Source: a virus. From it: DNA of 64,000 nucleotides. Below, piece by piece: positions 9,183 to 31,175 of this stretch (position 1 is its first letter; each line of letters starts with the position of its first letter). Below the pieces are notes generated by a model. That model was not told the origin of the DNA and made no database searches. It worked only from the letters and a program-made list of their open reading frames with translations. The stretch spans positions 1 through 64,000 of IMG/VR virus record IMGVR_UViG_3300042549_009011. One strand, given 5' to 3'. A program made the translations under genes and the position numbers.

Positions 9183-10778
9183 AAATTACGAACGATGCGG
9201 AGCGAAATACGCAGAGATCGACTAACAGAACGGAAACCCGTAACCCCTTGAGTATCAAGGGTTTCTATCTCCTACCACTTCACCTTTTTACACTCTACAT
9301 ACAGGTAACATACAGTATAAACATAGAGAGAGTATAGAGCAAAGAAAGAGGATGATGAAGATAATGGAAAATGGGAAGATTTGGAAAAGTGGATTCGCAT
9401 AATTATAACTCTTTTTAAATGATTTTTTAATATCTTACGCAATTTTTTTATACTTTAGCCAGTTTTATCTTGACAATCCTTTATATTATGTTACCTTTAC
9501 CCCCATGAAGAAAACGTTATCTTTCCTATTCGTAGCACTCCCGTTGGGACTGCTTCTCAGTCTTATCCTCGCAGTTATTCTTGGTACTGTGACATTTTGT
9601 CGCAGCTTTGCTGACTATTGGTCGTACATCATCGTACAATTCTTCCCTATGTATGGTATGCGAGATCGTGTAGAGGAGGAACAAGAGCCGCAAGAGCCAC
9701 AAGAGCAGTCGTCCATATGGGAAAAGCATCAGGCTAAGATGGATGCAAAAAAACGAGAAGAACCAAAAGACTAAATTACGAACGATTTTTGCCCAAATAA
9801 ACAAAAACAAATTACGAATTATTTTCGGCTAAATAAACAATTAAATTAAGAACGAAAATGAGCCAAATAAACGAAGGAACAAATTACGAACAAAAGATCG
9901 CCAAATATAAAGCATTTATTAAGGAGTTGTCTGAAGTGCAGGAACTCTACTACCAAAAACTCGTAGAGGAAATCAACATCAGTGCAAAAGACGAAGAGTA
10001 TTTGTTTGATTACATATACAACGCAGACTTTACAACTTTCGGAGATTACCTAGCGCAGTTTAATAAACAATAAAATTACGAACGATTTTGCCCCAAATAA
10101 ACAAATGAAACCTTACTATTATATAGACAGCGCAAATGCTAACGTACGCAGAAACAAACACCACACTTTAGAATCTGCGGTTAAAGGTGCAGAGTTTATG
10201 GCGGAAAGTTACCCTGGAATTAGTTTTGAAGTGTTACAAGTTGTAGCTATAAGCTCTACGCCGAAACCCAATGCCACAACCTTCTACTTGGATCGCGCGA
10301 CGGAATAAAAATTACGAACGATTTTTTTCTAAATAATAATAACTTAAATTACGAACGATTTTTGCCGAAATAAACAACGCGCAAGTATGGATGGATTATA
10401 CGAAATGTACACGACGGAGAATGAGTTTGCGCGAATTGAACAGTGCATCCGCGAGGCAATTTCCAAAGCTATTAAAGCTGGAGTGAATCCTACTGAGATT
10501 TGGCTGGGAGAAGTTGAGATGGCGACATTTCGGAAACATATAAAATTACAGTTTATTAATCATCGTAAAGCGAGCGAACAAATCTCGGAAGAAAATTTTA
10601 AATACGCTGACATGGAAGTAAGAGAATCCAAATCACAAGGAATCCGTGTTGGCGTGAGTTGGGTATCAAATACCAAAGCGTAATTACGAACGATTTTCTC
10701 CTAAATAAACAATATAAAAATATGACTGATACAAAACCAAATAACGAAATTACGAACGATTCTGCCCTAAATAATAAA
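9183..10778 (+). repeat. Ten copies of a ~32-bp direct repeat AAATTACGAACGATTTTNNCCNAAATAAACAA
   Basis: Copies start at 9183, 9773, 9809, 9843, 9881, 10073, 10309, 10346, 10681 and 10747. Confidence 0.9.
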
Positions 10779-10937
10779 GCGCCCGAAATGAACCTCGAAC
10801 AGATGATGTGGGAAGCTCGCCGCCAAAACCACAAAAAACTTTATACGATTCTGCGGCACAAGCTGGGGCTTGGTAAACACTGGTTGCAAAGAGTTGCTGT
10901 TCCTAAGTCTAAACGGTGGGGCGCTGGTATTAAATAA
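9505..10937 (+). CDS. Five short ORFs punctuated by the 32-bp repeats (9505-9774, 9858-10073, 10105-10308, 10387-10683, ~10722-10937)
   Basis: Stop codons abut or overlap repeat starts; the ATG at 10105 directly follows a repeat. Confidence 0.7.
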
Positions 10938-15861: not shown

Positions 15862-16142
15862 AAACTTTTCGGTAACATGGTAAATAAGTCCTCTTCTCTG
15901 GTGTGGTGCTGGGGAAGAGGCGATTGCCAAAAGAATAAATGCCAAATAAATAAATTGTAAATAATAAAACTGCAAATAATCAATTGCTAAATAAATAAGC
16001 TCTAAATAAGCGAAGTGTGTATACATGGTAAATTTTTATGGTGGGGCGGGAGGTTCGCATAAAAAAGATTTTTTATTGCAGGGTGGGTCGCTCGCATAAA
16101 AAACTGTTAGAGTATTCTGTTAGAGTTTCTGTTAGAGAATAG

Positions 16143-16165
16143 ACCCCCCTCTTTCGAGGGGGGAT
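16143..16165. terminator. Hairpin at the convergence of + and - early transcription
   Basis: CCCCCCTC-TTTC-GAGGGGGG. Confidence 0.6.
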
Positions 16166-16261
16166 CACTTACGCCGTCACAAGAAAAGCATAGGCACGGT
16201 TTTCATCTCCACATTGCGGCAACCCCAAGGATAAACGCACAGACTAAGATTTCTGGTAAGC

Positions 16262-16960
16262 TCATACGGGTTCAAGAACAAAACCCGTTGCATCTTTTTT
16301 CGCTTTGCCTTTCTCGACAAGCCCGACGATGACGTTTTGAGGGTCGTTAAAGCGGAGGTCGCTTTCATCACCGCTCACAACACGCTTGCCTTTCCACGAT
16401 GCAGGAAGTTCGCCACGGAACACGACAGCGACGTTCCCACCGCTTGCAAGCACAGCGTCAACAAGTGCTTCATTGCTTTCGGAACGCGAGAACGTCAAGT
16501 GATAATTGGAAGGAAGCTCACCAGCAAGGAAAGCCGACATACGAGAAGCGTATTTCGTGTAGTCGTAGTATTGACATTGTGGGAAAAGTTCAAAAATGTT
16601 TTTTCCGTTAATGAGAACTTTTTCCCATGGAATGTCACTTGTGAGGTTTAAGCGAAAGCATGGAATCAAATTTTTTCTTTCCGCCGATTTGATTGCAGAA
16701 GTGATTTCTTTGACAAGCTGAGCCATGAACAAAGCCTTATCCTTAAAAAAGAATTTAGTTTTTTCGATTCGTGCATTTTGCACAGTCGAGAAGATACCAT
16801 GTCCAGCCGTGTTCAAGCAAGAATCGCCGCATCCAACGCTTGCGTGTTTGCAAGTGTTGAAGCCCGACAAGTTGGACGGAGCAAGATGAACGCCGAAGGT
16901 TTGGAAGCCGAGAGCCTCGCCTTTTTTAATTTTAGTGTTTGCAGTAGTTAGTAGTTTCAT
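16262..16960 (-). CDS. Gp88-like conserved phage protein
   Basis: RLNLTSDIPWE, YYDYTK, NYHLTFSRSE, GNVAVVF and GDESDLRFND motifs. Confidence 0.7.
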   Translation of the reverse strand: MKLLTTANTKIKKGEALGFQTFGVHLAPSNLSGFNTCKHASVGCGDSCLNTAGHGIFSTVQNARIEKTKFFFKDKALFMAQLVKEITSAIKSAERKNLIPCFRLNLTSDIPWEKVLINGKNIFELFPQCQYYDYTKYASRMSAFLAGELPSNYHLTFSRSESNEALVDAVLASGGNVAVVFRGELPASWKGKRVVSGDESDLRFNDPQNVIVGLVEKGKAKKDATGFVLEPV

Positions 16961-17001
16961 AACGGGGAAAAGTTAGCTGTTTCGAGTTGAGTTGTCAAGC
17001 A

Positions 17002-17352
17002 TTACCACCAAGAAGAATAGGCTACAATCAAACCATCAGCGATTGCAGCCTTGGCATCCTTGATGAATTTAAGGGTTTGCTCTTTTTGGTATTCGTCAAA
17101 GCGAGAATCTCCACCATAGAAGAAGCCTCCAGTTTCTGGAAGATTATCTCTGATAACGGCAGCCTCAAGATCATTGATATCATCGAGCGTCAAAACGACT
17201 TCAACGCAATTAAATTCACCCTCGCCGCCGTTATCGTGCCAGAGAGATTTCATCCAGCCTTGAAGTGCGTTGTGTTTCCGCCAATAGGCGAGTTCTTGAT
17301 GTTGTTCTTGTTGATTTGGTTTGCGTGTGTATGCGTACTGATCTAATCCCAT
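17002..17352 (-). CDS. Conserved phage hypothetical protein (MGLDQY...YWRKHN family)
   Basis: MGLDQYAY, ELAYWRKHNALQGWM, and a C-terminal YSSWW. Confidence 0.7.
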   Translation of the reverse strand: MGLDQYAYTRKPNQQEQHQELAYWRKHNALQGWMKSLWHDNGGEGEFNCVEVVLTLDDINDLEAAVIRDNLPETGGFFYGGDSRFDEYQKEQTLKFIKDAKAAIADGLIVAYSSWW

Positions 17353-17579
17353 AATTTTGTGTTGGTTGGTTACAGGGAAAAGATAACATTTCCTGCGAGA
17401 TTGTCAATTTTTTTCGATTAAAAAATAAATTAAAAAAAGACTTGACAACATCCCGCAAAAAAAACATTTGACAATTTTTATCTGGCGGCGGGGCGCTGGC
17501 ATAAAAAACTGTTAGAAAACTGTTAGAGAATTGTGCAAAAAAAACCGCCCCACTTTCGCGGGGCGGCTTGGGTTAGCGA

Positions 17580-18401
17580 TCAGTCGCGGAGATCAACTTC
17601 ACCCTCTGGGGCGTTGTCCTCGCAACCTTTCGTTACGATTTCTTGAAGCTCAAGTTGTGGCACGTGATGAGCGAGCTTGTCGAAGATGCTCTGCATCGTC
17701 ATCGTGCGGAATGGCAACTTGGAAAGATCACCGCCCTTGAGGTTTTCAGTTACGGCGTTGTAGAGATTCCACAACGTGTTACCCACGAAGTCAACGTGGC
17801 GGGGATTTTCTGAACCCTCCATGTGACGGCGGAACTCCACGACATTTGTGTAAAGGTCACGGGCTGGGATTGCTTTCGAGTCAACCAATCTCACAAGCAG
17901 ATTCTCAGCTTGAGCGGAGGAAATGAAAGTTTCCTTGTAGCGTTCAATACGCAAGCCCATGTCGTTCCAATGAGCGACAACGCGAGCCACAGCATCAGCG
18001 ATCACGCGAGGGAGATCAGCCAAGATGTTGAGAGTGTGACGGCGTGAGAGCTTCACATCAGACGAGAAGCAAAGATTTTCGCAAACCATCATGCGATTGC
18101 CGATGCAGATTGCGGCGGCGAAAGCCTTGTCATGGGAATTGCGAAGACCCAAAACGACTTGGCGATCCGTGCCGTCGATACCCTTGCCAGTGAGAGCGAA
18201 GCCGCCGAAGTAGCGAAGACCGCCACGGGCAAGCGAGTGTTCTTCCTCAACGATGGTCAGACCGACCGCCTCGATAGCTTCACGGGTAAGCTTGACGAGA
18301 GTATGGTGAGGAATTGGCATATGAGAATCGGTTGCTTCTGGAGTTTCAACACCCAAGAGTTGCTCGAATTGAACTTTGTTTTTTGCGATGATAAGTGACA
18401 T
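17580..18401 (-). CDS. DUF932-family protein
   Basis: LGLRNSHDK...GNRMMVCENLCFS...RRHT and TLWNLYNAVTE motifs. Confidence 0.75.
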   Translation of the reverse strand: MSLIIAKNKVQFEQLLGVETPEATDSHMPIPHHTLVKLTREAIEAVGLTIVEEEHSLARGGLRYFGGFALTGKGIDGTDRQVVLGLRNSHDKAFAAAICIGNRMMVCENLCFSSDVKLSRRHTLNILADLPRVIADAVARVVAHWNDMGLRIERYKETFISSAQAENLLVRLVDSKAIPARDLYTNVVEFRRHMEGSENPRHVDFVGNTLWNLYNAVTENLKGGDLSKLPFRTMTMQSIFDKLAHHVPQLELQEIVTKGCEDNAPEGEVDLRD

Positions 18402-18871
18402 ATTGTTATTTTCTGTTTTTAGTGGTTAAGAGTGCCTTTCGTGGCGACAAGAGAAAGATAGCATATCGTGCGAGTTTGTCCACACATTTTTATTTGTTTT
18501 TGCATTTTTATTTTTGCGGGAAAGTGAAAAAAACGCTTGACAACCCCTGGAAAAAACCATCTAACAGATTTTTATGCGGCGGGGGGACGCTAGGATAAAA
18601 AAATTATTTCTCTTCTTTTATCTCTCTTTTGCCGTCTCGCCTCACACGTTTATTTTGTGGGCGTTTCCAATCGCGCAAGTGCTTCCACCATTGGACAGTC
18701 TTCACAGATCCTTTGCCTTTACCTGCCGAAGCCATCGCGACATTCCTTTCTGCTTGCCTCTTTCTTCTTGTCCTTGAAGCGGATCACACAGGGAGGCATT
18801 GCGTGACGCACTAGGTTTCTCATGTCAAGGCTATTCTTTGAAAGTTCTTTGGGGGTTTTCTTTTTCATTTT

Positions 18872-19201
18872 TTAAATTGCGTAAGTTGTTCGATAAGCGA
18901 TTCCCATTTCTTTACACACTTGCTTAAAGACTTTGCCGTGAAAGTCATTTCTACCATTGACTTTGAATGTTCCGCCCATGCGTGAGAATTGGATGCAATG
19001 AGCAATCTCATGCAAGAGAACATATTTAAAAATGGAAAAGTTGTTTAAAACTATTTTGTTTAACTCAACCTTTTTTTCCCAAGGGTTAGCAAAACCAAGA
19101 GTTCTTTTAACGTGAGGATTCCAGTAGAGAGTGTAGTCATGTAAGCCGTATTGTTTAAAGGTTAGATGGGCGTATTGTTCGACTTCTTGTGTGGTGAGCA
19201 T
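18872..19201 (-). CDS. SprT-like zinc metalloprotease
   Basis: VLLHEIAH plus downstream HGKVFK. Confidence 0.75.
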   Translation of the reverse strand: MLTTQEVEQYAHLTFKQYGLHDYTLYWNPHVKRTLGFANPWEKKVELNKIVLNNFSIFKYVLLHEIAHCIQFSRMGGTFKVNGRNDFHGKVFKQVCKEMGIAYRTTYAI

Positions 19202-19250
19202 GGCAAAAGTTTAACTGTTTTAGGGATTGTGTCAATTATTTTTATTCTCC

Positions 19251-21817
19251 TTAACCGACTTCTTCTAGCATCTCTGGATTAAGCCATACAAATTCATTTT
19301 CTAAATGAGAAAGAATTGGGTAAACTCCATATTCTTTTTTGCCCGTATCTGTCCAGATTTCTCTTTTTAGAGTTTCTTCAAGTTTCTTTTTTAGTTTTTT
19401 TAACTTGGTTTCTGTCATTAGATACGAAGAATATTGACTTTGGTATTCTGTAGTATGCTCTATCTTTAATCGAAATTTTTTCATAGCTGCAAAAGTTTAA
19501 CTGTTTATTCTTCTGTGTCAATAGAAAGTTCAGAAGTAAAAAAGATTTCTCCGTATGATGTAACAAAACGATAAGATCCGTCTTGTAGTTCTGTGAAATC
19601 TTCCTGATTGTATAACAGGCTTTTTCCGATTTCGCTCATGATAACATCGACAGCTACTTCGTCGAGGTCGTCACGGGGAATGTCAATGGTTATTTTCATG
19701 GTGCTGTGGGATTTAGATTATTTGTTTTCCTCCAAGAAGTCAACAAAAGATTCTGCAAGATCAAAGATTAGTTCTTGCACATACCAATAAGGATCTTCAT
19801 TGCCAGCGGCTCTTTGAATCGCGTCCCAAATCAAAACTTTGTCTTGTTCGGGATGGTTTTCTTCGATAATAACAAGCGAAAGCTTTTCAGCGTCCCAGCT
19901 TTGATCCCAGCTAGAAAGGAAGTGGGAGGCAGCACGAAGAATTGCTTTTGCGTGAATCGGATTGCTTGTGTCGAGGTGATCAGTCATGCAAGGAACTTAT
20001 CATTTGAGAGTGCGAACGTCAACATTTTTTATTGATTATATTATTAATTAAAACACTTGACAAGATTGTGCCGAAAGCATCTAACAGATTTTTATCTCGC
20101 GGCGGGGCGCTCGCATAAAAAATTGAGGGGGCAGCGCATACCACCGCGCCACCCCTAATTCACCATGCCACAGAAATTATACGTGGAAACCTTCTTCTTC
20201 TAACACTTCAGCAACAGCTTCTTGTGCGATGTTGTAGAGTTCTGAGACGAGGGCAGTATCACCCTCCTCCTCGATGTATTCTTCCATAGCATCGAGTGCG
20301 TACATGACGCAAGGAAGATCTGGGAGGTCTGACATGGAAAGCCCACACAGATCGTAACAGGCTTGATTCATAATGGTAATGCAGCGTTTGCGGATGTTCA
20401 TAGTGGTAATTCTTTTAGAGTTTTGCGGGGACAAGGATTGTAATTTGCGTTTCTTCTCCTTCATTGTCAATCAAAAAAAGATTTGAACCGCTAACTCTCA
20501 CCATTTTGTTTTCTCCCTCTTGGAATTTCGCGCAGTATTCTAAGCCCTCAATATCCCAGCCGAGATAAAGAAATTCGTTTTCATCTGATCCGTTTAAATC
20601 ATCCAGACATGGAAATGTCAGGGTGTCGTCAATGATAATTGCAGATGCGTCTTGAATGATAGCAAAGGCTTCTTGTAAAGGTATGTATTTCATAGTGGCG
20701 ATAGTTTAATGTTTTTGGGGCGAGTTGTCAACTATTTTTAATCAAATGGCGGCAAATACTTTTTTACCATTTAAAATAACTTCTTCCGCGCGAAAAATAT
20801 CTTGATTTTTGCACTGGAACTGATTGACCTCATACGGATTATATCGCACGGATTGAAACCATTTATTAGATTGTAAGCTCGAAACCAACTCACCCAAGAT
20901 GTAGGCGTGAACGTTCTTTCTTTTTTCTTTGATTACTCTCTGGCGACCAGCCTGAGATACCTTAAAGCTTGCGTTGCGAAGATAAGCATCTTCTAGATGG
21001 CAAACGACTTTCCACCTTCCATTCACTTTCGCTTGAACGGAAAGTTTTTTCTTGTGGAGGTTGAAATAGATTCTGACTTGTTGATTGAGTGGTATCATGG
21101 CAAGAGAAAATTACACTGTGAACGCCAATTTGTCAAATACTTTTTTGCTAATAAGCTGTAAACGAGCTGCAAATAAATAAGCTGCAAATAAGAAATCGCC
21201 AAATAACGCTTGACAGGGGTAAATTTTTATGGTGGGGCGGGTAGTTGGTATAAAAATCTTTTTTATTCAAAGGTGGGGCGCTGGCATAAAAATCTGTTAG
21301 AGCGTCCGAGGTGTTCGTGTCAAGTATTTTTTTGGAAAAGGTTAGCGGGGAGAGCCACCACAACTCTCCCCGCTTTCACCATGCATCAGATCACCACATC
21401 TGAAAACGTAACGCTTGAAAACTTTTTGTGAATTGCTCCACACTTGAACTCAACCACCTTTTCAGGTTGGAAAGAGAACCAGCCTTTGCGGTTGCGGTCA
21501 ACGGCAGACTTGTAGCCAGCGGCTTTCAAGCCTTGAGTAGCTGGGTGATTTGAATTTCCTTTGACAAGATAATCGTAGCGGTTTTTCGCATTGATTGTGC
21601 GGAGAGTTCCGTCTTTCTTCTCGAAAGTGATAGAGAAGAATTTGCCTTTGGTTTGTTCGATGAGTTGGTCGATGTTTTGTTGCATAGTTTTTTTGTTTTG
21701 TTTTTCTTTACGAGAGTGAATGTAGAGTGAAATGCCACGGGTGGCAAGATAAAAAATAGAGAAAAGTGCTGGAATTGAGGCGACGACGAGGATGGAGTGA
21801 ATTAAGTTTTCTTTCAT
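19251..21817 (-). CDS. Monocistronic small early ORFs (19251-19484, 19505-19699, 19718-19987, 20177-20401, 20415-20693, 20742-21098, 21386-21817)
   Basis: Most are preceded by their own TTGACA-N16/17-TAANNT promoter; 20742-21098 (YFNLHK...RKNVHA) and 21386 (FFSITFEKKDGTLR) carry motifs common in phage hypotheticals. Confidence 0.7.
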
Positions 21818-22277
21818 GGTGGAGATAGTTTAATGTTTCAAGCGGGGTTTGTCAACTACTTTTTTGCGTATGCTTGAATGCAAGCGAGGCAGTAGCAGGT
21901 TGCCCCGAAAGTCAAGAAGCAAGCAACATCAAACAATTCATTTTTCCCGCCATAGACAGCGAAAGCACAAAGGCTAAAGGTTGGAGAGATGGTGATGATT
22001 GCGGAAGCGATGATGATAAGTGCGTGTTTCATAGTGGCGTTATTTTAGTATTTTTTGAAGATTAGTCAAGAAGTTTTTATTTCGATTGATCTCTTTCAAA
22101 TTTATAGCCATCTTCTTTTAAGGCTTTTATTTTATTATTAAAATCTTTTTCATCTTCAAAACGATATTCTTGTGCTGGGCGATCACCCAAGGCATAAGTC
22201 CAGATCATTAGGGTGTTGCTATTAGTAAAAAACCAGTGTGTTGTTTTCATAGTGTTGATTGTGGTTAATTTTAAAGA

Positions 22278-22535
22278 TTAGTCAAGAATAAAAACACCAT
22301 TGCCCATCATTCCTTCTCTGGATTTTTTGGTTGCGGTTGAAAGGATGTTTCTTTTTAATTCTTTTCCCTCGTTAGTAGATGGCACGAAAGAAAGAGTTTG
22401 TTTTATTTTATTAAGCGTTGCGTCGTCGCTACTAATGGAGAAGCCATCAATTTTCTTAATGAGCTTTGCGGCTTCAAGAAATTTTGGGATTTCAAGCGGG
22501 GCTTCTGATTGGAGTTTTTTTAGTTTGGCGTTCAT
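22278..22535 (-). CDS. Hypothetical protein, paralog of 23486-23746
   Basis: KLQSEAPLEIPKFLEAAKLIKKIDG vs KLQEQAPQEIPKFLEAAALIKKFDG. Confidence 0.75.
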   Translation of the reverse strand: MNAKLKKLQSEAPLEIPKFLEAAKLIKKIDGFSISSDDATLNKIKQTLSFVPSTNEGKELKRNILSTATKKSREGMMGNGVFILD

Positions 22536-22582
22536 GGGTGGATTGTGGTTTGTTTTGGGGTGGTTGTAAAGAAGAAAGTGAT

Positions 22583-22655
22583 CTTGTTGAGTGAGATTCG
22601 AACTCACCTTTTAGGGGGTTTAGCCCTTTGTCTTGTCCCCCTAGACGATCAACAA
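22583..22655 (-). tRNA. tRNA-like cloverleaf with AAA at the anticodon position and no encoded CCA
   Basis: TTGTTGA-TC-GTCT(AGGGGGACA)AGAC-A-AAGGG(CTAAACC)CCCTA-AAAG-GTGAG(TTCGAAT)CTCAC-TCAACAA-G. Confidence 0.7.
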
Positions 22656-22972
22656 GTTTTAGAAATTGATGGCATGTCTGAGGGATTTTACCCCGCCGTT
22701 ATTCTCGACTCTCTTAGCCAGTTTCGAGCGACTTTTTCTACTAGGGCGTTCCCTCCCTCGCATGAATACAAGTTACCATTTTTTCAGAAAAGCGCAAGGA
22801 TTATTTTAATTATTTTTTTCTAATATTTCTCTTGACATGGTAGGCGGGAAAGCATCTAACAGTTTTTTATCTGGCGGCGGGGCGCTCGCATAAAAATTCC
22901 ACAGCGTGTCAAGTGTTTTTATTGATTATTTTTGCGCGAATGTTTGGGGCGGCTTTCGCCGCCCCTTGTCCA

Positions 22973-23122
22973 TCAAACAAAGTCCAATGTCCCCAAAGGC
23001 ACTTCATCCTCTCGCCCATCTTCAAAACGAATCAAGGCACGATTTCCAGCGGGAGTGTGGACGACTTCGAGAAGTTCAACTTCACAGTCACAATATTTGC
23101 AGATTTCTTTTTCTTCGATCAT
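22973..23122 (-). CDS. 49-aa acidic beta-rich mini-protein (not in ORF track), paralog of 26689-26838 and 27720-27872
   Basis: MIEEKEICKYCDCEVELLEVVHTPAGNRALIRFEDGREDEVPLGTLDFV; own promoter and a downstream GGGGCGGC/GCCGCCCC hairpin. Confidence 0.7.
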   Translation of the reverse strand: MIEEKEICKYCDCEVELLEVVHTPAGNRALIRFEDGREDEVPLGTLDFV

Positions 23123-23485
23123 GGCAGGGAAAGGATAAGAGTTTTTCGCGGATCAGTCAAGAAAGAATTGCTTTTTCCAGACTGCATCTTGAACTTTTTT
23201 GTCAAGCCAAGACTGCTGTTCAAAGATTCTTGCGGTGAAGATGGATTGTTTTCTGGCGAATAGTTTTTTAAGTAGTTTCATAGCGGCGAAAGTGTAGGAT
23301 TTTCGGGGCGAGTTGTCAACTATTTTCTGTTTCTCACAGAATCAACTGTTCCATCAGCATATACTCTTACTGTATAAGCACTCGCTTTTGTTACATACAT
23401 ATGCCCAAAGGTAGTTTGTATTTTGTAGCAGCGGCTTAAATTAAACCATGCTTTGAGGTGAATCAAAATTATTTCTTTCATATTT

Positions 23486-26400
23486 TTAATCCATTAAAAA
23501 CATTCCATCAAACATTCCTTGGCGGGATTTTTCCTCTGCTTTGATTAAGATACCCTTCTTCAACTCTTTGCCCTCTTTGGTTGAGGGAACAAAAGAAAGA
23601 AGTCTTGTGATCTTGTTCAGATTCTCCACATCAGAAGAGATCGACATTCCATCAAACTTCTTTATCAATGCGGCGGCTTCTAAGAACTTGGGGATTTCTT
23701 GTGGTGCTTGCTCTTGTAGTTTTTTCAGCTTTTCTTGTTGGTTCATGGTGCGAAAAGGATAGCGTTTTTTTATTGTTCTGTCAATCTTTTTTCTTCAAGA
23801 TAACCTTCAAGAAAGGAAATTTCTTGTTCGATTCTTTCACAACCTTGCCAATCTGAAAAGTCTTCACACATTTCAAGTTGGCGGCGTAGTTTGTCAATGA
23901 CGATGATGATTGATGCGGTGGACATATGTTTTTTATTAGGTGGAAAGATTAAACTTTTTTTGGGGATATTGTCAACAGTTTTTTATTTTTTGCGCTGAAA
24001 TTAAATCCGCTGAAGTTAAATAAAAACTTGACAAATACATCTAACATTTTTCTAACAGTTTTTGTAAGTGATTGAGCGCCAACGACTTACGCGCGGCGCG
24101 GGGGGCGCGGCGCGTAACTCGCTGAGTATCAACGAGTTACGAGAATTCAATTCCACTCCTCGAAGATGAGCTTGCCATCGCGCTCAAGGCGATAGCAGTC
24201 CATGATCGGGCAACCCTCGACACCCGTGAGAGTGGTGACGGAAACGCCGCCGAAACCGCAAGCCTGTTTAGGGCTTTTGGAAAATCGGGTGACAGTGTAA
24301 GTGCCAGAGTCCCAGTTGCCCCCGCAGGAAGGGGGGTTCTGCATATAGGTGATGTGCGTGTGCTTATACATGACGATTAAGATGTGTTGATTTTAAATTG
24401 AAGTCAAAGAACTGGTTGATGCGGTTGTCGAGAATCCCAAAAACATTAAAAAAACTTTCAGGAATTGGGTCGGGCGTGGATGCGTGAATCTCGTCAGCGA
24501 TTTCGTCCATCACGCGGCAGTATTCTTCGTATTCTTCGGGGCAGCTTGGGTAGGTGTCGGTCATGGGCATATTATACCCACAAAGCAGAGATAAAACCAA
24601 GCTTTATTTTCATATTTTATTTTTTATTTTTTTACTTATTTTCTTGACAGAATCGGCTTTTATGGTATAGAGCGCGATCACATAAGTCGTTGAGTATCAA
24701 CGAGTTACGCGCGGCGGGGGGCGCGGGGCGCGTAAGTCATTGAGCGTCAACGACTTACGGCTTTTCCCAAACGAAAGACTTTTCTTCGGGATCGTTGGGC
24801 TTGAGATTCCAACGATAGAAAATCTTATTTTCTAAACGTGTTTCTATCAGATAATTGTTAGAAGTTCTGTTAGGTGAAGAAGCAACCCAAGCTGTTAGAG
24901 CCGCTTGCATTTCTCGCATTTCTGCGAAAGGTTTATATCGTGAATCGTTTTCCATTTTGTGGGTGATTATATAAGTTTTTGTTTTGTATAACTATTTTTG
25001 AATACCGCTGGCGTGTAAACTCTTTTGGATAGCAAACATTGAAGATCGTATCTTATGGAAATTTTGAAATCATTCACGCTCTCAACAGTAGCGACTCGCT
25101 TTGTATTATTATTAAACCATAAACTGCCGACTTTGATCTCTAATGGATTGCAGATCGGGGCTTGTTTGGAAATGGTTTTGCTAGGAAAAATTAGTTGTCT
25201 TTTCATGCTCTTATTATACTAGGTTTTTCTTATGCTGTAAAGTGAGAAAAGAAACTTTCTTTTGCTTCACTTGTGGCGGTTTCTTTCGCGTCAAATTCTT
25301 CTCTTGAAACTTCTTTGACTCCATCGAGAGAATGAAGAAAAGTTTTGTTTGCTTTGTTTGAGGTTCTCGCGAAGCAATGCATCTCTGGAAATGGATTGAT
25401 TCCTAAGCCAAGGTAAATGCCTTTGTTTGTAGTGGTGTTTGCTTTCATGTCTTTAAGATAGGGTTTTTTCAGAGAAACGCAAGTTTTTTTTCGATTTGTT
25501 TTTCTCTGCGGATTTTGCGGAGGGTTTCGAAAGCATCTTTTCTTTCTACGATGAAAGATTGTGCGGAATAATCAGTCACAAAGACTGAGAAAACTACTTG
25601 ACCTTGATTCTCTTTTTTACCCTTTGGAGTAGAAAGGGCGAAACGATTTGTGGTGTAGCGTGTGCGGGTGGTTTGACGTTCGATTTGCATGGGGAAAGTA
25701 TAGTTTAAAAAGGGTTTTGGTGCAAGGTTTATTTTGCTTTTTTATTTTTTATTTTTAGACTGGTTGAGCAAAGTTCATGAGGAAACCTAGGTCTTTGAAG
25801 CGATCAGAGTGACGAGCAGGGATGCAACCATTTTCATGTAACATTCTGCAAACATCACCTTGGATGCTTTGAACTTTCATGATTCTTCCGCTTACGCGAA
25901 CTTTCATGCCTTCAGTGATTGTGATTTGTTTTTCGTTTTTCATGCCCAAAGTATAATCAAAAACCCGCTTTTCCGCAAGAACTTTCTGCATAAAAAAGCA
26001 TTTATTTTTCACTTTTTATTTGAAGAAAACGCTTGACAGAATTCTCTAACAGCCATCTAACAGTTTCTTTTTGAGCTTCGTAAGTCACTGAGTATCAACG
26101 ACTTACGCGCGGCGGGGGGCGCGGGGCGCGTAACTCCTTGAGGCTCAACGAGTTACGGGGCTGAATTATTTTTATTTTTTTTTCTTTACATTCAACCCGC
26201 GATCTTGCGAAGCATCGCACTTCCGCGATACTCAAGAATTGTTAGACCATAGCAAGCGATGAAGAAAAGCGAGCCTGTCGCGACAAAGTAAAGATCTTGA
26301 TTGAGGCAACCATAGAAAGCAACGATTACACCAGTGAGGAAGTAAGCAATGACAGTGAGGGCGATGATCCAGTTTTTGATGATGTATTTATTGATTTTCA

Positions 26401-28319
26401 TATTTTTTTAGTGTGTGTGAGTTGGTGAAGAGAGTGTGGTATATTCGGGGCGAGTTGGCAAGATTTATTTACAGATAATTTTTGACATTATTTCTTGCTT
26501 CGTCCAGATGTTCCGAATCATCAATTTGATTTAAAACGGCTTCTTTTATTTCGGCAATCATTGCGTCAAAATCGTCTACGCAAAATTCTAAATGGCGTTT
26601 GCCTTGGCAATAGCCGCTGATAATGTTTTTTATTTCGTCTTTCATGGTGGTAATTGTAGAGATTTTTTAATGGTTGGCAAGGATTATTTTATGCACTTTC
26701 CAATTCTGACAGATGAACTTCTTTTTCCTCTCCATCGTTGAAAGAGATGAAGGCGGTATCGTCAAAGACTTCTTCGATGATAACGAGTTGGTTATGGTAG
26801 ATTGCGTATTGAATGTGCGATGTGGTGTTTGCTTTCATGTAATTAAGATACCCGATTTGATCGAAACCGCAAGAAAAAAAAAACGTTTTTTTATTTATTT
26901 TTTTCTGAAGAAAACGCTTGACAAGATGCGGCACAAACCATCTAACAGCATTCTAACAGTCTATGTAAGTCACTGATACTCAATGAGTTACGCGCGTGGG
27001 GGGGCGCGAGGCGCGTAAGTCGTTGAGGCTCAACGAGTTACGCTTACGCTTTAGACTGGAAAGCCTTCCTCTTCTAACAGTTCCACGACAGCATCTTGGG
27101 CTATGTTATAGAGTTCACTTGTTAGAGCGTTATCACCCTCCTCTTCAATGTATTCCTCCATCTCATCGAGAGCATACATGACACAGGGAAGGTCAGGCAA
27201 GTCAGAGAGAGAAAGCCCTGACATGTCAAGGCAAGCTTTATTCATGATGGCAAGGCATTTTTTGCGTGTGTTATCCATAGTGGTATTGTGTTAGATGTTT
27301 TCTGTTAGATCGCTTTTCTGATTGTAAGACCCCAACCTGTTAGAGTTTTGAATTCATAACTAGGCGGGATTATCGGAAGAGGCACGGCTTCGGCTTCGTA
27401 CCATTCCCCATTTATCACCCTGCCGCCATTAAAGCGGATCGTTTGACCATATTGCGGATAGCTTGAAGCATTGCTCGCAATGATACCCTTGGGCGGTTTG
27501 TCGCCATAGGCGTTCGCTGGCGCGTGTCTTGCGCGTTTTGCGCATTCTTTTTCCGTCCATATCTCTTGGGGATGAGTGTAAGTTTTCATTTCTGTTAGAG
27601 TGTGGAGACGATCCAAGCATTGGTAATGTAAAGCGTGAATGCGATCATCAAACCGAAGGCGAGGAACACAATGATGTTTTCGAATGTTTGCATAGTTTTT
27701 TCTGTTAGATGTTTTTCTGTTAGGCTACAAAGTCCAAGGTGATCAGAGGAACTTCTTCTTCTCTTCCGCAATCGTAAGAGATAAGAGCAAGTGTGCCGTA
27801 GTCTGTTGCATAAATTTCGAGAACGATCACAGGCATTCCACAGTAGTTAGCGAATTCAATTTTTTCTTTCATGGCTTTAGTGTATTGGATTTGAGGTGTG
27901 TGTAAAGATTTATTTATGCTTCAAAGCGAGAAAAGAAACTTTCTTTAGCTTCTGCTATGGCGTTTTCTTTGGCTGTAAACTCTTCCAAAGAAATTTCAAT
28001 GATTCCGTTGAGAGAGTCAAAGAAAGATTTGTTCGCTCCGTTTGAAGTCTTTGCGAAGGCGTGGAGAGTTGGGAATGGATTGATTCCTTTGCCAAGGTAG
28101 ATTCCGAAGTTAGTTGCGGTGTTTGCTTTCATGTCTTTAGAGTAGTAGATTTTTGCAGAAACGCAAGATTTATTTTGCGAAGATAGATTTATTTTTAAGG
28201 CTGTTGAGAAGAGCCATTGTCTTTTCATGCTCTTTCTTTTCTTGCTCACGCTTTGCTTTCGCGTCTGCAATGATCTTGTCGAGAGTAGGGAATTGGATAG
28301 TGGTGAATTGATCTTTCAT
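23486..28319 (-). CDS. Distal small early ORFs (23486-23746, 24147-24371, 24364-~24570, 24755-24955, 24967-25206, 25230-25448, 25469-25690, 25755-25943, 26192-26401, 26689-26838, 27051-27278, 27305-~27589, 27720-27872, 27914-28132, ~28170-28319)
   Basis: Co-directional; many have TTGC(A/G)N-N16/17-TANNNT promoters 6 nt before ATG; includes paralog pairs. Confidence 0.7.
24064..27041. repeat. Four 77-bp elements: 27-bp palindrome + 23-bp GC spacer + 27-bp palindrome
   Basis: 24064-24140, 24682-24758, 26080-26156, 26965-27041; half-site consensus GTAAGTCRYTGA-N3-TCAAYGASTTAC. Confidence 0.92.
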
Positions 28320-30112: not shown

Positions 30113-30490
30113 ATGAATAAAGAATTTTGTATTAACTGTGGGCATAAAAACTTATTTGAGGTTAACAAACCTAAGTTTTGTGCTGGCTGTGGAACTGCAT
30201 TTAATGTGTTTTCCAGTAAAGCTTCTGCAAACGCTCAAACACAAGACGTTGAAGAACAAGAAGAAGATTATCAAATAAAATCATTCGATATAAATAAACT
30301 TAAAAAATCTATAGTTTTTGAATCAAAAGCCAAAGTAAGAACTTTAGACGAATTATGGCAAGATCCAGCACCAAGAGATTCAAATTCTTTTAGGGCGCAT
30401 TCGTCAGATCCATCTGGCAGAGAAATCATAAAAAAGACAATGGAAGAATGTTCCCCCGTTAAACAAGTTAAAGAAATTGGTGACGAATAA
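30113..30490 (+). CDS. Zinc-ribbon protein
   Basis: FCINCG...KPKFCAGCG. Confidence 0.65.
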   Translation: MNKEFCINCGHKNLFEVNKPKFCAGCGTAFNVFSSKASANAQTQDVEEQEEDYQIKSFDINKLKKSIVFESKAKVRTLDELWQDPAPRDSNSFRAHSSDPSGREIIKKTMEECSPVKQVKEIGDE

Positions 30491-30494
30491 TTAA

Positions 30495-31175
30495 ATGTCA
30501 AACTACACTTACGAAGACAAGTCAAGTGAGCTTGAAGAGATATTGTCAAAATATAGATCCAAGTGGCAGCTAGACGCTTTAGCTTGGCTTGATTACGATG
30601 ATGTCTGCCAAATCATAAGAACCCATATTTGGAAGAAGTGGCATCTTTGGGACCAAGATAGACCATTTAAACCTTGGGCTGCAATGGTCATATCTCATCA
30701 GATGATGAATCTCGTTAGAAATAATTATTCCAACTTCGCTAGACCGTGTTTAAAATGCCCATTCTTCATGGGTGCTGATGGTTGCAGTTTCACTAAAAGT
30801 AAAATACAAGACTCTGAATGTGAAATTTTTGCTAAATGGCAAAAGAAAAAAGAAAAAGCTTATAATTTAAAACTCGCTCTACCTATTGAAGATGGTAGCA
30901 ATCTTGGTGAATGTAGTATAGAAGATGAAATAGATTTTGATAAAGCCCAACACGCCTTACATAAAGCTGTTACATCTCAACTAAGCGGTAAGCATTTGGA
31001 AATATATAAACTTCTTTTCATAAAGAATATGGAAGACTCTGAAATAGCTGAAATATACGGCTTCAAAAAAGATTCTTCTAAAAGAAAAACAGTAAGATAT
31101 AAACAATTATGTAATCTTAAAAAGAGGTTTTATGAGATGGCGAAAAAAGCCTTACAAGAACAAGATATTTTATGA
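30495..31175 (+). CDS. Phage sigma70-family (probable late) sigma factor with Cys-rich insertion
   Basis: Region 2-like DYDDVCQIIRTHIWKK...FKPWAAMVISHQMMN and region 4-like HTH (LSGKHLEIY...EIAEIYG). Confidence 0.65.
   Translation: MSNYTYEDKSSELEEILSKYRSKWQLDALAWLDYDDVCQIIRTHIWKKWHLWDQDRPFKPWAAMVISHQMMNLVRNNYSNFARPCLKCPFFMGADGCSFTKSKIQDSECEIFAKWQKKKEKAYNLKLALPIEDGSNLGECSIEDEIDFDKAQHALHKAVTSQLSGKHLEIYKLLFIKNMEDSEIAEIYGFKKDSSKRKTVRYKQLCNLKKRFYEMAKKALQEQDIL

Follow-up and report, generated by a model that had tools for sequence, protein, structure and literature searches.

The first 64,000 nucleotides of the virus contig IMGVR_UViG_3300042549_009011 (147,748 bp in total, G+C 34.7%, estimated to be 100% complete) contain four 77-bp elements among small early genes encoded on the minus strand. 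We refer to this 64-kb stretch as the window. The small minus-strand genes fill the interval from ~16 to 29.2 kb and, toward the other end of the genome, from ~140.4 to 147 kb. Each element consists of a 27-bp palindrome (P1), a 23-bp spacer of G and C only or nearly so, and a second 27-bp palindrome (P2). Element 1 occupies 24064-24140 on the plus strand (P1 24064-24090, spacer 24091-24113, P2 24114-24140) and abuts the stop codon of the minus-strand gene at 24147-24371. Element 2, at 24682-24758 on the same strand (P1 24682-24708, spacer 24709-24731, P2 24732-24758), overlaps the end of the minus-strand gene at 24755-24955. Also on the plus strand, element 3 at 26080-26156 (P1 26080-26106, spacer 26107-26129, P2 26130-26156) lies 36 nt past the stop of the gene at 26192-26401, and element 4 at 26965-27041 (P1 26965-26991, spacer 26992-27014, P2 27015-27041) lies 10 nt past the stop of the gene at 27051-27278.

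Scanning the window with a degenerate palindrome pattern (up to 3 mismatches allowed) recovered exactly these eight palindromes, compared with 0.01 expected from 100 dinucleotide shuffles, confirming the four elements that an initial annotation had placed at 24064, 24682, 26080 and 26965. A whole-genome scan revealed three further 77-bp elements outside the window, at genome positions 140300, 141790 and 142892, with the same orientation, 27+23+27 architecture and polarity, giving seven elements and 14 palindromes. All seven spacers are 23 bp long and G-rich on the plus strand, and the starts of P1 and P2 are 50 bp apart in every copy; the invariant polar spacer and 50-bp period described in the annotation thus extend to the complete genome. 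It had also located the elements between small early units, and all copies do lie between small minus-strand genes, from -3 to 36 nt past the stop codon of the upstream (minus-sense) gene; at the copy at 140300 the adjoining genes converge. What it took for a lone half-site at 9240-9266 is instead a degenerate whole palindrome on the plus strand, with a perfect inner 17 bp, a diverged right outer arm and 6 mismatches to the pattern; a CTAACAG box precedes it at 9222.

Placement of the elements in related phages and the boxes that face them

Pattern scans of IMG/VR matched more than 114 stretches, and our element statistics for relatives come from the matches listed. Among these are 876 palindromes and 421 pairs, with at least 388 unique paired elements. 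P2 begins 50 bp after the start of P1 in 265 pairs, and most of the others fall at 48-53 bp. The spacer, with a mean G+C of 83%, is 23 bp long in 238 of the 388 unique elements (61%) and 21-26 bp long in 315 of them (81%), so the spacing, on which the initial annotation had staked its proposal, is conserved. The elements align at 78%-87% over ~80 nt between phages whose early-region DNA can otherwise be aligned mainly in two genes, DUF932 and GP88. One 127-kb contig carries elements at both ends, as the present genome does.

The elements of relatives also sit close behind genes. The upstream stop codon is within 20 nt of 41% of elements, while only 7% are that close to the next start codon (median distance 102 nt), and convergent junctions with elements outnumber divergent ones 45 to 24. 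The G-rich strand runs antisense to the flanking genes in 94 of 140 cases. Eight relatives have a solitary tRNA gene 13-50 nt ahead of an element, and in six of them it encodes tRNA-Met (L208:6414, L170:13762, L139:4053, L204:13990, L046:11698 and L112:3971). Cultured phages gave no DNA match to the genome, and its TerL is less than 28% identical to that of any cultured phage; a search of metagenome contigs for close relatives also found none.

Promoter-like boxes point into the elements. In this genome, CTTGACA precedes six of the seven elements on the plus strand, the exception being the copy at 140300, and the gap between box and element is 4-15 nt. In five of these six boxes, TCTAAC(AG) follows after 17 nt, in most cases twice, with an offset of 11 bp. 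The four boxes that face elements 1-4 are on the plus strand. The box into element 1 spans 24028-24058, with TTGACA at 24028-24033 and TCTAACA at 24040 and 24051. That into element 3 (26033-26063) has TTGACA at 26033-26038 and TCTAACAG at 26045 and 26056, again with an 11-bp period, and that into element 4 (26918-26959) has TTGACA at 26918-26923 and TCTAACAG at 26941 and 26952. The sixth box, at 24644-24671 before element 2, has TATAGA after 16 nt; this TTGACA-N16-TATAGA arrangement, followed 10 nt later by the element, is the typical form of relatives.

In relatives, TTGACA most often ends 32 nt before the element (the mode, with 59 unique cases), and boxes frequently lie on both sides, converging on it. 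The logo of these 59 cases reads T-rich, A4, gCTTGACA, N16, TAwrGr, A5, nCnTC and then the GTAA of the palindrome. The -35 hexamer and upstream A-tract match well, often along with a TGn extension, while the -7 T of sigma-70 promoters is absent from the inward boxes and most of those in this genome (TCTAAC) also lack the -11 A. At 206 co-directional junctions, the box is antisense to the flanking genes in 61 cases and sense in 22. If the boxes initiate transcription, the predicted start is ~3 nt before P1, and the palindrome would then span about +3 to +29, where an operator would lie. These boxes are separate from the promoter-like TTGACA/TTGCGG-N17-TAnnnT sequences, which occur once per small early gene, 5-9 nt ahead of the ATG.

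Sequence and pairing in the palindromes and the spacer

The half-site of the palindrome is GTAA-S-TC-R-Y-TGA. Across 526 unique palindromes, T2, A3, A4, T10, A18, T24 and T25 are essentially invariant, and the GTAA end is paired with TTAC, both being almost invariant. The variable arm positions change near-independently. At position 5/23 we counted CG 170, GC 118, GG 117 and CC 103 times, Watson-Crick pairs are not in excess at 8/20 and 9/19, and mutual information is below 0.04 bits at all arm pairs. In an alignment of 136 elements, the arms pair in 84.4% of cells, compared with 83.0% in shuffles, and at 5/23 and 8/20 pairing fails in ~45% of cells; a hairpin role of the arms thus finds pairing barely above that of shuffled sequences. 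A long stem between P1 and P2 was rejected, as its pairing (77.4%) is lower than in all 500 shuffles. The similarity of P1 to P2 is instead that of direct repeats. The initial annotation had noted that the element can fold as two hairpins or as one long stem and had suggested a cruciform signal. The folds are thermodynamically possible, all elements giving stable structures of -26 to -44 kcal/mol, but neither fold is evolutionarily conserved, and the low P1:P2 pairing contradicts a cruciform or long-stem signal.

Because the arms vary near-independently and P1 does not pair with P2, the palindromes look like duplex dimer sites, not hairpins. What is recognized appears to be their sequence, and the simplest reader would be a dimeric protein bound to the double strand. 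The paired dimer-binding sites that the annotation had put forward fit these data, since sequence, rather than pairing, is kept across very distant phages. The degeneracy at position 5 (G or C) would suit reading through the minor groove.

The spacer behaves differently. Its positions 7-14 are G-rich and 15-23 C-rich, and it has undergone many GC-to-CG swaps. The excess of Watson-Crick pairs sits on the exact central dyad (+184, compared with -38 to +38 on adjacent diagonals), and compensatory change there is evident, with 63.5% of cells paired as opposed to 54.2% in shuffles and a covariation score of 0.334 as opposed to 0.210. The minimum free energy (MFE) of the spacer is no better than that of shuffled sequence. 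Judged from these comparisons, the center is the only part constrained as a hairpin or dyad and would be a separate module.

Each palindrome half matches the integration host factor (IHF) core consensus WATCAANNNNTTR, as quoted in PMC10380432, in register (TCAA, N4, TTA). Over positions 14-26, the conservation is W 80%, A 49%, T 88%, C 85%, A 100%, A 75%, N4, T 99%, T 100% and R 100%, and the left arm mirrors this. We treat the resemblance as a lead on the binder, not as a finding.

Two other candidates were discarded. A CRISPR-like mini-array was discounted because the repeats are palindromes whose half-sites vary independently and because all spacers resemble one another. Type II topoisomerases cleave with a 4-bp stagger, and a site for such an enzyme was dropped given the odd-centered dyad. 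A literature search for the 12-mers of the palindrome returned nothing relevant.

Short elements, the internal duplication and palindromes in bacteria

The genome also contains 12 copies of a shorter, 33-bp element, TTTTTAT-N19-ATAAAAA, all with the same G-rich 19-bp core and the same polarity. The copy at 18569-18601 (plus strand) lies behind a TTGACA-N17-TCTAACAG box; in the paralogous slot, the same box is followed by the 77-bp element at genome position 142892. The copy at 17475-17507 (plus strand) has CTGTTAGA boxes on its right side, facing inward, and its paralogous slot holds the 77-bp element at 141790. Other short elements, with the core G-rich on the plus strand, lie in the zone 16033-22896, at 16033, 16070, 20089, 21224, 21260 and 22864.

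These paralogous slots belong to a 5.7-kb direct duplication, in which 17577-23281 corresponds to 141906-147652 (L280:3907-9653). Identity between the copies is 100% over ~4.5 kb (18.62-23.1 kb and 142.99-147.47 kb) and 82%-95% in the DUF932 gene. The switch in identity falls exactly at the intergenic slot that holds the 33-bp element at 18569 in one copy and the 77-bp element at 142892 in the other. The next slot shows the same substitution (17475 and 141790), together with the presence or absence of a 116-aa gene. Thus, the 33-bp and 77-bp forms are positional equivalents, interchangeable within a slot, and this swap is the best single hint of cassette exchange. The perfect repeat ends ~100 nt before the contig end and may reflect either a true segmental duplication or an artifact of assembly. 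A tRNA-Phe gene at 22582-22656 on the minus strand, within the minus-strand early region, has a duplicate at genome positions 146953-147027.

The palindrome is not confined to phages. Scanning 185,579 species genomes yielded 59 stretches with the palindrome, some of which are mis-binned phage contigs with many pairs. About 45 are solo palindromes, from Fibrobacter (~30), Akkermansia, Zixibacteria, Bacteroidota, Acidobacteriota, Brucellaceae and others. The five bacterial genomes that we checked have 1-9 copies each. One Akkermansia genome (L281-L289) has nine copies beside unrelated housekeeping genes, with a common flanking motif, GCATT..GAATGCTGTA, and the Fibrobacter copies (L222, L225, L249 and ~27 other loci) adjoin giant repetitive proteins and a conserved 136-aa protein. 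As the Akkermansia neighbors are unrelated and the Fibrobacter neighbors have no Pfam match, we rejected the idea that the solo sites form a transcription-factor regulon. Their arms show no overall covariation.

Four or five of the solo sites trail a bacterial tRNA, 2-12 nt from its 3′ end (L238:5090, L237:2853, L266:7316, L278:1306 and L269:2587); at L269 the site lies between a tRNA fragment, which precedes it, and an integrase gene. Such tRNA-adjacent sites may be the ends of integrated elements or phage-derived tRNA modules, and they hint that either the same protein-site pair or such modules reach cellular genomes. A host repetitive extragenic palindrome (REP) or miniature inverted-repeat transposable element (MITE) family, which the initial annotation had named as an alternative source, found no match among known families, although solo copies in some bacterial genomes did emerge. 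The site is not a known REP family, as it lacks the GTAG/CGTC tag, the REP-associated tyrosine transposase (RAYT) and a high copy number (PMC3733652).

Several features of the surrounding genome bear on the phage itself. Downstream of the early zone is a conserved block encoding PhoH, a 125-aa protein, a sigma factor, a 356-aa protein, an ERCC4-type nuclease and TerL. At 30113-31175, the 125-aa protein lies immediately upstream of the sigma factor, in which only region 2 is matched, and the pair is kept in ~50 relatives; this order may resemble that of T4 gp33/gp55. The early zone encodes a DUF932 protein and homologues of mycobacteriophage L5 gp82 and gp88, the latter two at 16262-16960 and 20742-21098 (Pfam GP88 and Phage_L5_gp82), with near-leaderless genes. 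The L5-type homologues and near-leaderless genes may indicate an actinobacterial host, despite the G+C content of 35%. A distinct family of ~9 direct repeats (AAATTACGAACGATTTT...CAAATAA) occupies 9761-10779 in the plus-strand early region and has the appearance of another regulatory box.

Possible roles of the element and comparison with known systems

We tentatively read the 77-bp element as a putative protein-bound transcription boundary or operator cassette of the early region, a role that we find plausible though short of probable. A dimeric, sequence-specific protein, phage- or host-encoded, would dock on each 27-bp palindrome as duplex DNA, with two dimers per element and the 23-bp G/C center as a separate small hairpin or dyad between them. 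On an element loaded just beyond the stop codon of a gene, or beyond a tRNA gene, the bound protein would stop RNA polymerases that run on from the upstream gene, acting as a stoperator-like roadblock or insulator. From its operator position, it would also shut the inward-facing promoters, and each early cassette would be transcriptionally isolated. If correct, this would explain how dozens of tiny, individually promoted early genes are insulated without ordinary terminators. Canonical terminators are scarce, the interval 23.5-27.5 kb holding two terminator-like sites, compared with 4.6 expected by chance. If a protein docks as proposed, the element would be a widespread and very rigid regulatory device, present in hundreds of copies in a phage clade with no cultured member, and the 27-bp site would be ready bait for the regulator.

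Several observations weigh against this proposal. No DNA-binding domain was recognized in ~30 early proteins with Pfam and PHROGs, which gave no candidate among the conserved neighbors of the elements either, and genome searches for HTH_3 and HU/IHF were negative, with no stoperator-domain model among those searched. Lacking the -7 T and, for most of those in this genome, the -11 A, the inward boxes may not be promoters. Arm pairing shows a small excess over shuffles, and the covarying center points to a single-stranded role, as RNA or extruded DNA, that the protein model leaves unexplained. Because 33-bp elements occupy equivalent slots without any 27-bp palindrome, the palindromes are not indispensable for the role of the slot. 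Nor did three hunts for the binder produce a candidate: one by co-occurrence of open reading frames (ORFs; 2,108 clustered from 128 loci), one by sequence search of the PDB, and one that looked for the conserved 125-aa and 356-aa proteins in the bacterial genomes with solo sites.

A stronger version of the protein model, which we consider unlikely, makes the element a sequence-specific, bidirectional, factor-dependent transcription insulator. Here, a conserved dimeric protein, possibly a host architectural protein of IHF-like specificity, would clamp the two sites around the G/C hairpin while crippled inward promoters park RNA polymerase, and the solo palindrome after tRNA genes in several bacterial phyla would do related work. 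If true, a large uncultured phage clade and some bacteria would end their transcription units by a shared mechanism that has not been described.

Other readings dispense with a bound transcriptional regulator. The element could act as RNA, either as the 5′ structured part of short transcripts (small or antisense RNAs) from the inward promoters or as a 3′ hairpin cluster that ends and stabilizes the upstream mRNA or tRNA transcript, as REPs do. The predicted start just ahead of P1, the covarying central dyad, the stable folds and the location at gene and tRNA 3′ ends are all consistent with such a role. In addition, a canonical hairpin and T-run follow the element at 141790 on the plus strand, U-rich tails follow three others, and some bacterial solo palindromes have extended stems and T-runs. 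However, when we examined the elements as intrinsic terminators, a hairpin was present but in most copies no T-run lay within 2 nt of any stem. Pairs are broken at the variable arm positions in ~45% of sequences, with arm pairing barely exceeding that of shuffles, the spacer MFE is unexceptional, and no Rfam family matches the elements. A stabilizing hairpin, moreover, needs no strong conservation of primary sequence in both arms. We therefore regard an RNA role as doubtful. Replication starts primed by transcription seem far less probable still. In this scheme, the promoter would fire into the G-rich segment to form a stable R-loop, and the flanking palindromes, which resemble initiator-type sites, would bind an initiator. 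AT-rich tracts adjoin the cassette, and a promoter-like box followed by a G-skewed GC core, with the RNA-like strand G-rich, was counted for seven of seven long elements. Against this, the 19 long and short copies per genome are far above any known set of phage origins, three short elements of this genome have the box on the C-rich side, boxes of relatives enter from that side nearly as often as from the other (43 and 75 cases), and the cumulative GC skew does not switch at the elements.

The initial annotation had also proposed that the elements are recombination sites that shuffle early-gene modules; its other suggestion, control of staged DNA entry, gained no support from our observations. 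As recombination sites, they could be passive patches of homology for general recombination, or active sites of an unrecognized recombinase or structure-specific nuclease, and a conserved ERCC4-type nuclease is encoded in the neighboring core block. The duplication, in which identity jumps from 82%-95% to 100% exactly at one swapped slot and the 116-aa gene is present or absent beside the other, is consistent with such exchange, and the promoter-early stem-loop (PeSL) cassettes of T4-type phages behave in this way (PMC2839356, PMC4122927). At junctions where one locus carries an element and the other does not, the gene downstream differs in 99% of cases. However, tyrosine (PF00589) and serine (PF00239) recombinases, the cognate enzymes expected for att, dif or attC sites, and Y1 transposases are absent from the complete genome, while control searches were positive; target-site duplications are absent from the elements; and the 3-bp center of the palindrome is unlike recombinase cores. 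Family-level synteny is poor throughout the early zone, and its loss at junctions with elements hardly differs from that at element-free junctions, as the downstream neighbor is retained in 12% of pairs that have an element and in 19% of those that lack one. Of 467 homology breakpoints between relatives of at least 85% identity, 26% lie within 100 nt of an element, compared with 19% of random points, only a ~1.4-fold enrichment, and the median distance equals that of random points (365 and 371 nt). The 100% repeat at the contig end may, moreover, be an assembly artifact. Recombination joints as the purpose of the elements are thus improbable, and recombination is at most a possible PeSL-like side effect. 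Least probable, along with replication starts, is a selfish or semi-selfish REP/MITE-like repeat that moves between phages and bacteria without serving the phage. The solo copies in Fibrobacter, Akkermansia, Zixibacteria, Bacteroidota and others, and the homogenization of P1 and P2 as direct repeats, are compatible with it, but the geometry relative to boxes and gene ends is fixed across very distant phages, RAYT or other transposases and target duplications are lacking, bacterial copy number is low, and the unpaired tag of REPs is missing.

For the putative protein-bound boundary that we favor, the closest known systems are PeSL cassettes and stoperators. PeSLs combine sigma-70-like promoters, AT-rich upstream tracts and terminating stem-loops (G...C) between ORFans and mediate shuffling and the formation of mini-circles (PMC2839356, Arbiol et al., 2010; PMC4122927, Comeau et al., 2014). 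Like them, the elements described here are short repeated intergenic cassettes among small early ORFans, with a sigma-70-like -35 hexamer behind an AT-rich tract and a stem-loop made of a G-run and then a C-run. They too lie just after the upstream gene, cassette isolation has been proposed for both, and there is some sign of cassette replacement at the element (one clear case, the internal duplication). In contrast to PeSLs, they add two strongly conserved 27-bp palindromes; their boxes, which lack the -7 T, point into the element, not toward the downstream ORF; and the U-tract is missing. The phages do not belong to the T4 type, and shuffling is weakly supported here.

Stoperators, the dispersed repressor sites that stop elongation in cluster A mycobacteriophages such as L5 and TipsytheTRex (PMC9283540), are the nearest functional analogue for dispersed protein sites that block elongation. 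In both systems, many copies of one protein site (putative here) are scattered across the early region, in promoter regions and short intergenic gaps, a block of both initiation and elongation is proposed here as it is for stoperators, and the L5 gp82 and gp88 homologues of the present phage are encoded in the same region as its elements. Stoperators, however, are asymmetric 13-mers bound by monomers in one orientation, while the sites here are paired 27-bp dyads around a G/C hairpin, and no repressor or integrase gene is recognizable.

REPs and their mosaic arrays (BIMEs) are a third relative. They share palindromic units of 20-40 bp, often paired with a linker (PMC3733652), and a location after genes and between co-directional or convergent ORFs. 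Some BIMEs bind IHF, and the palindrome halves of the present elements match the IHF core in register. Unlike REPs, the elements are phage-borne, with 1-9 solo copies per bacterial genome checked, have arms that are not hairpin-like, and lack both the unpaired GTAG/CGTC tag and a RAYT. The element is new as a variant among known kinds of phage intergenic cassettes, and the proposed device would merge features of three systems, PeSL cassettes, stoperators and REP/BIME, that have been known separately.

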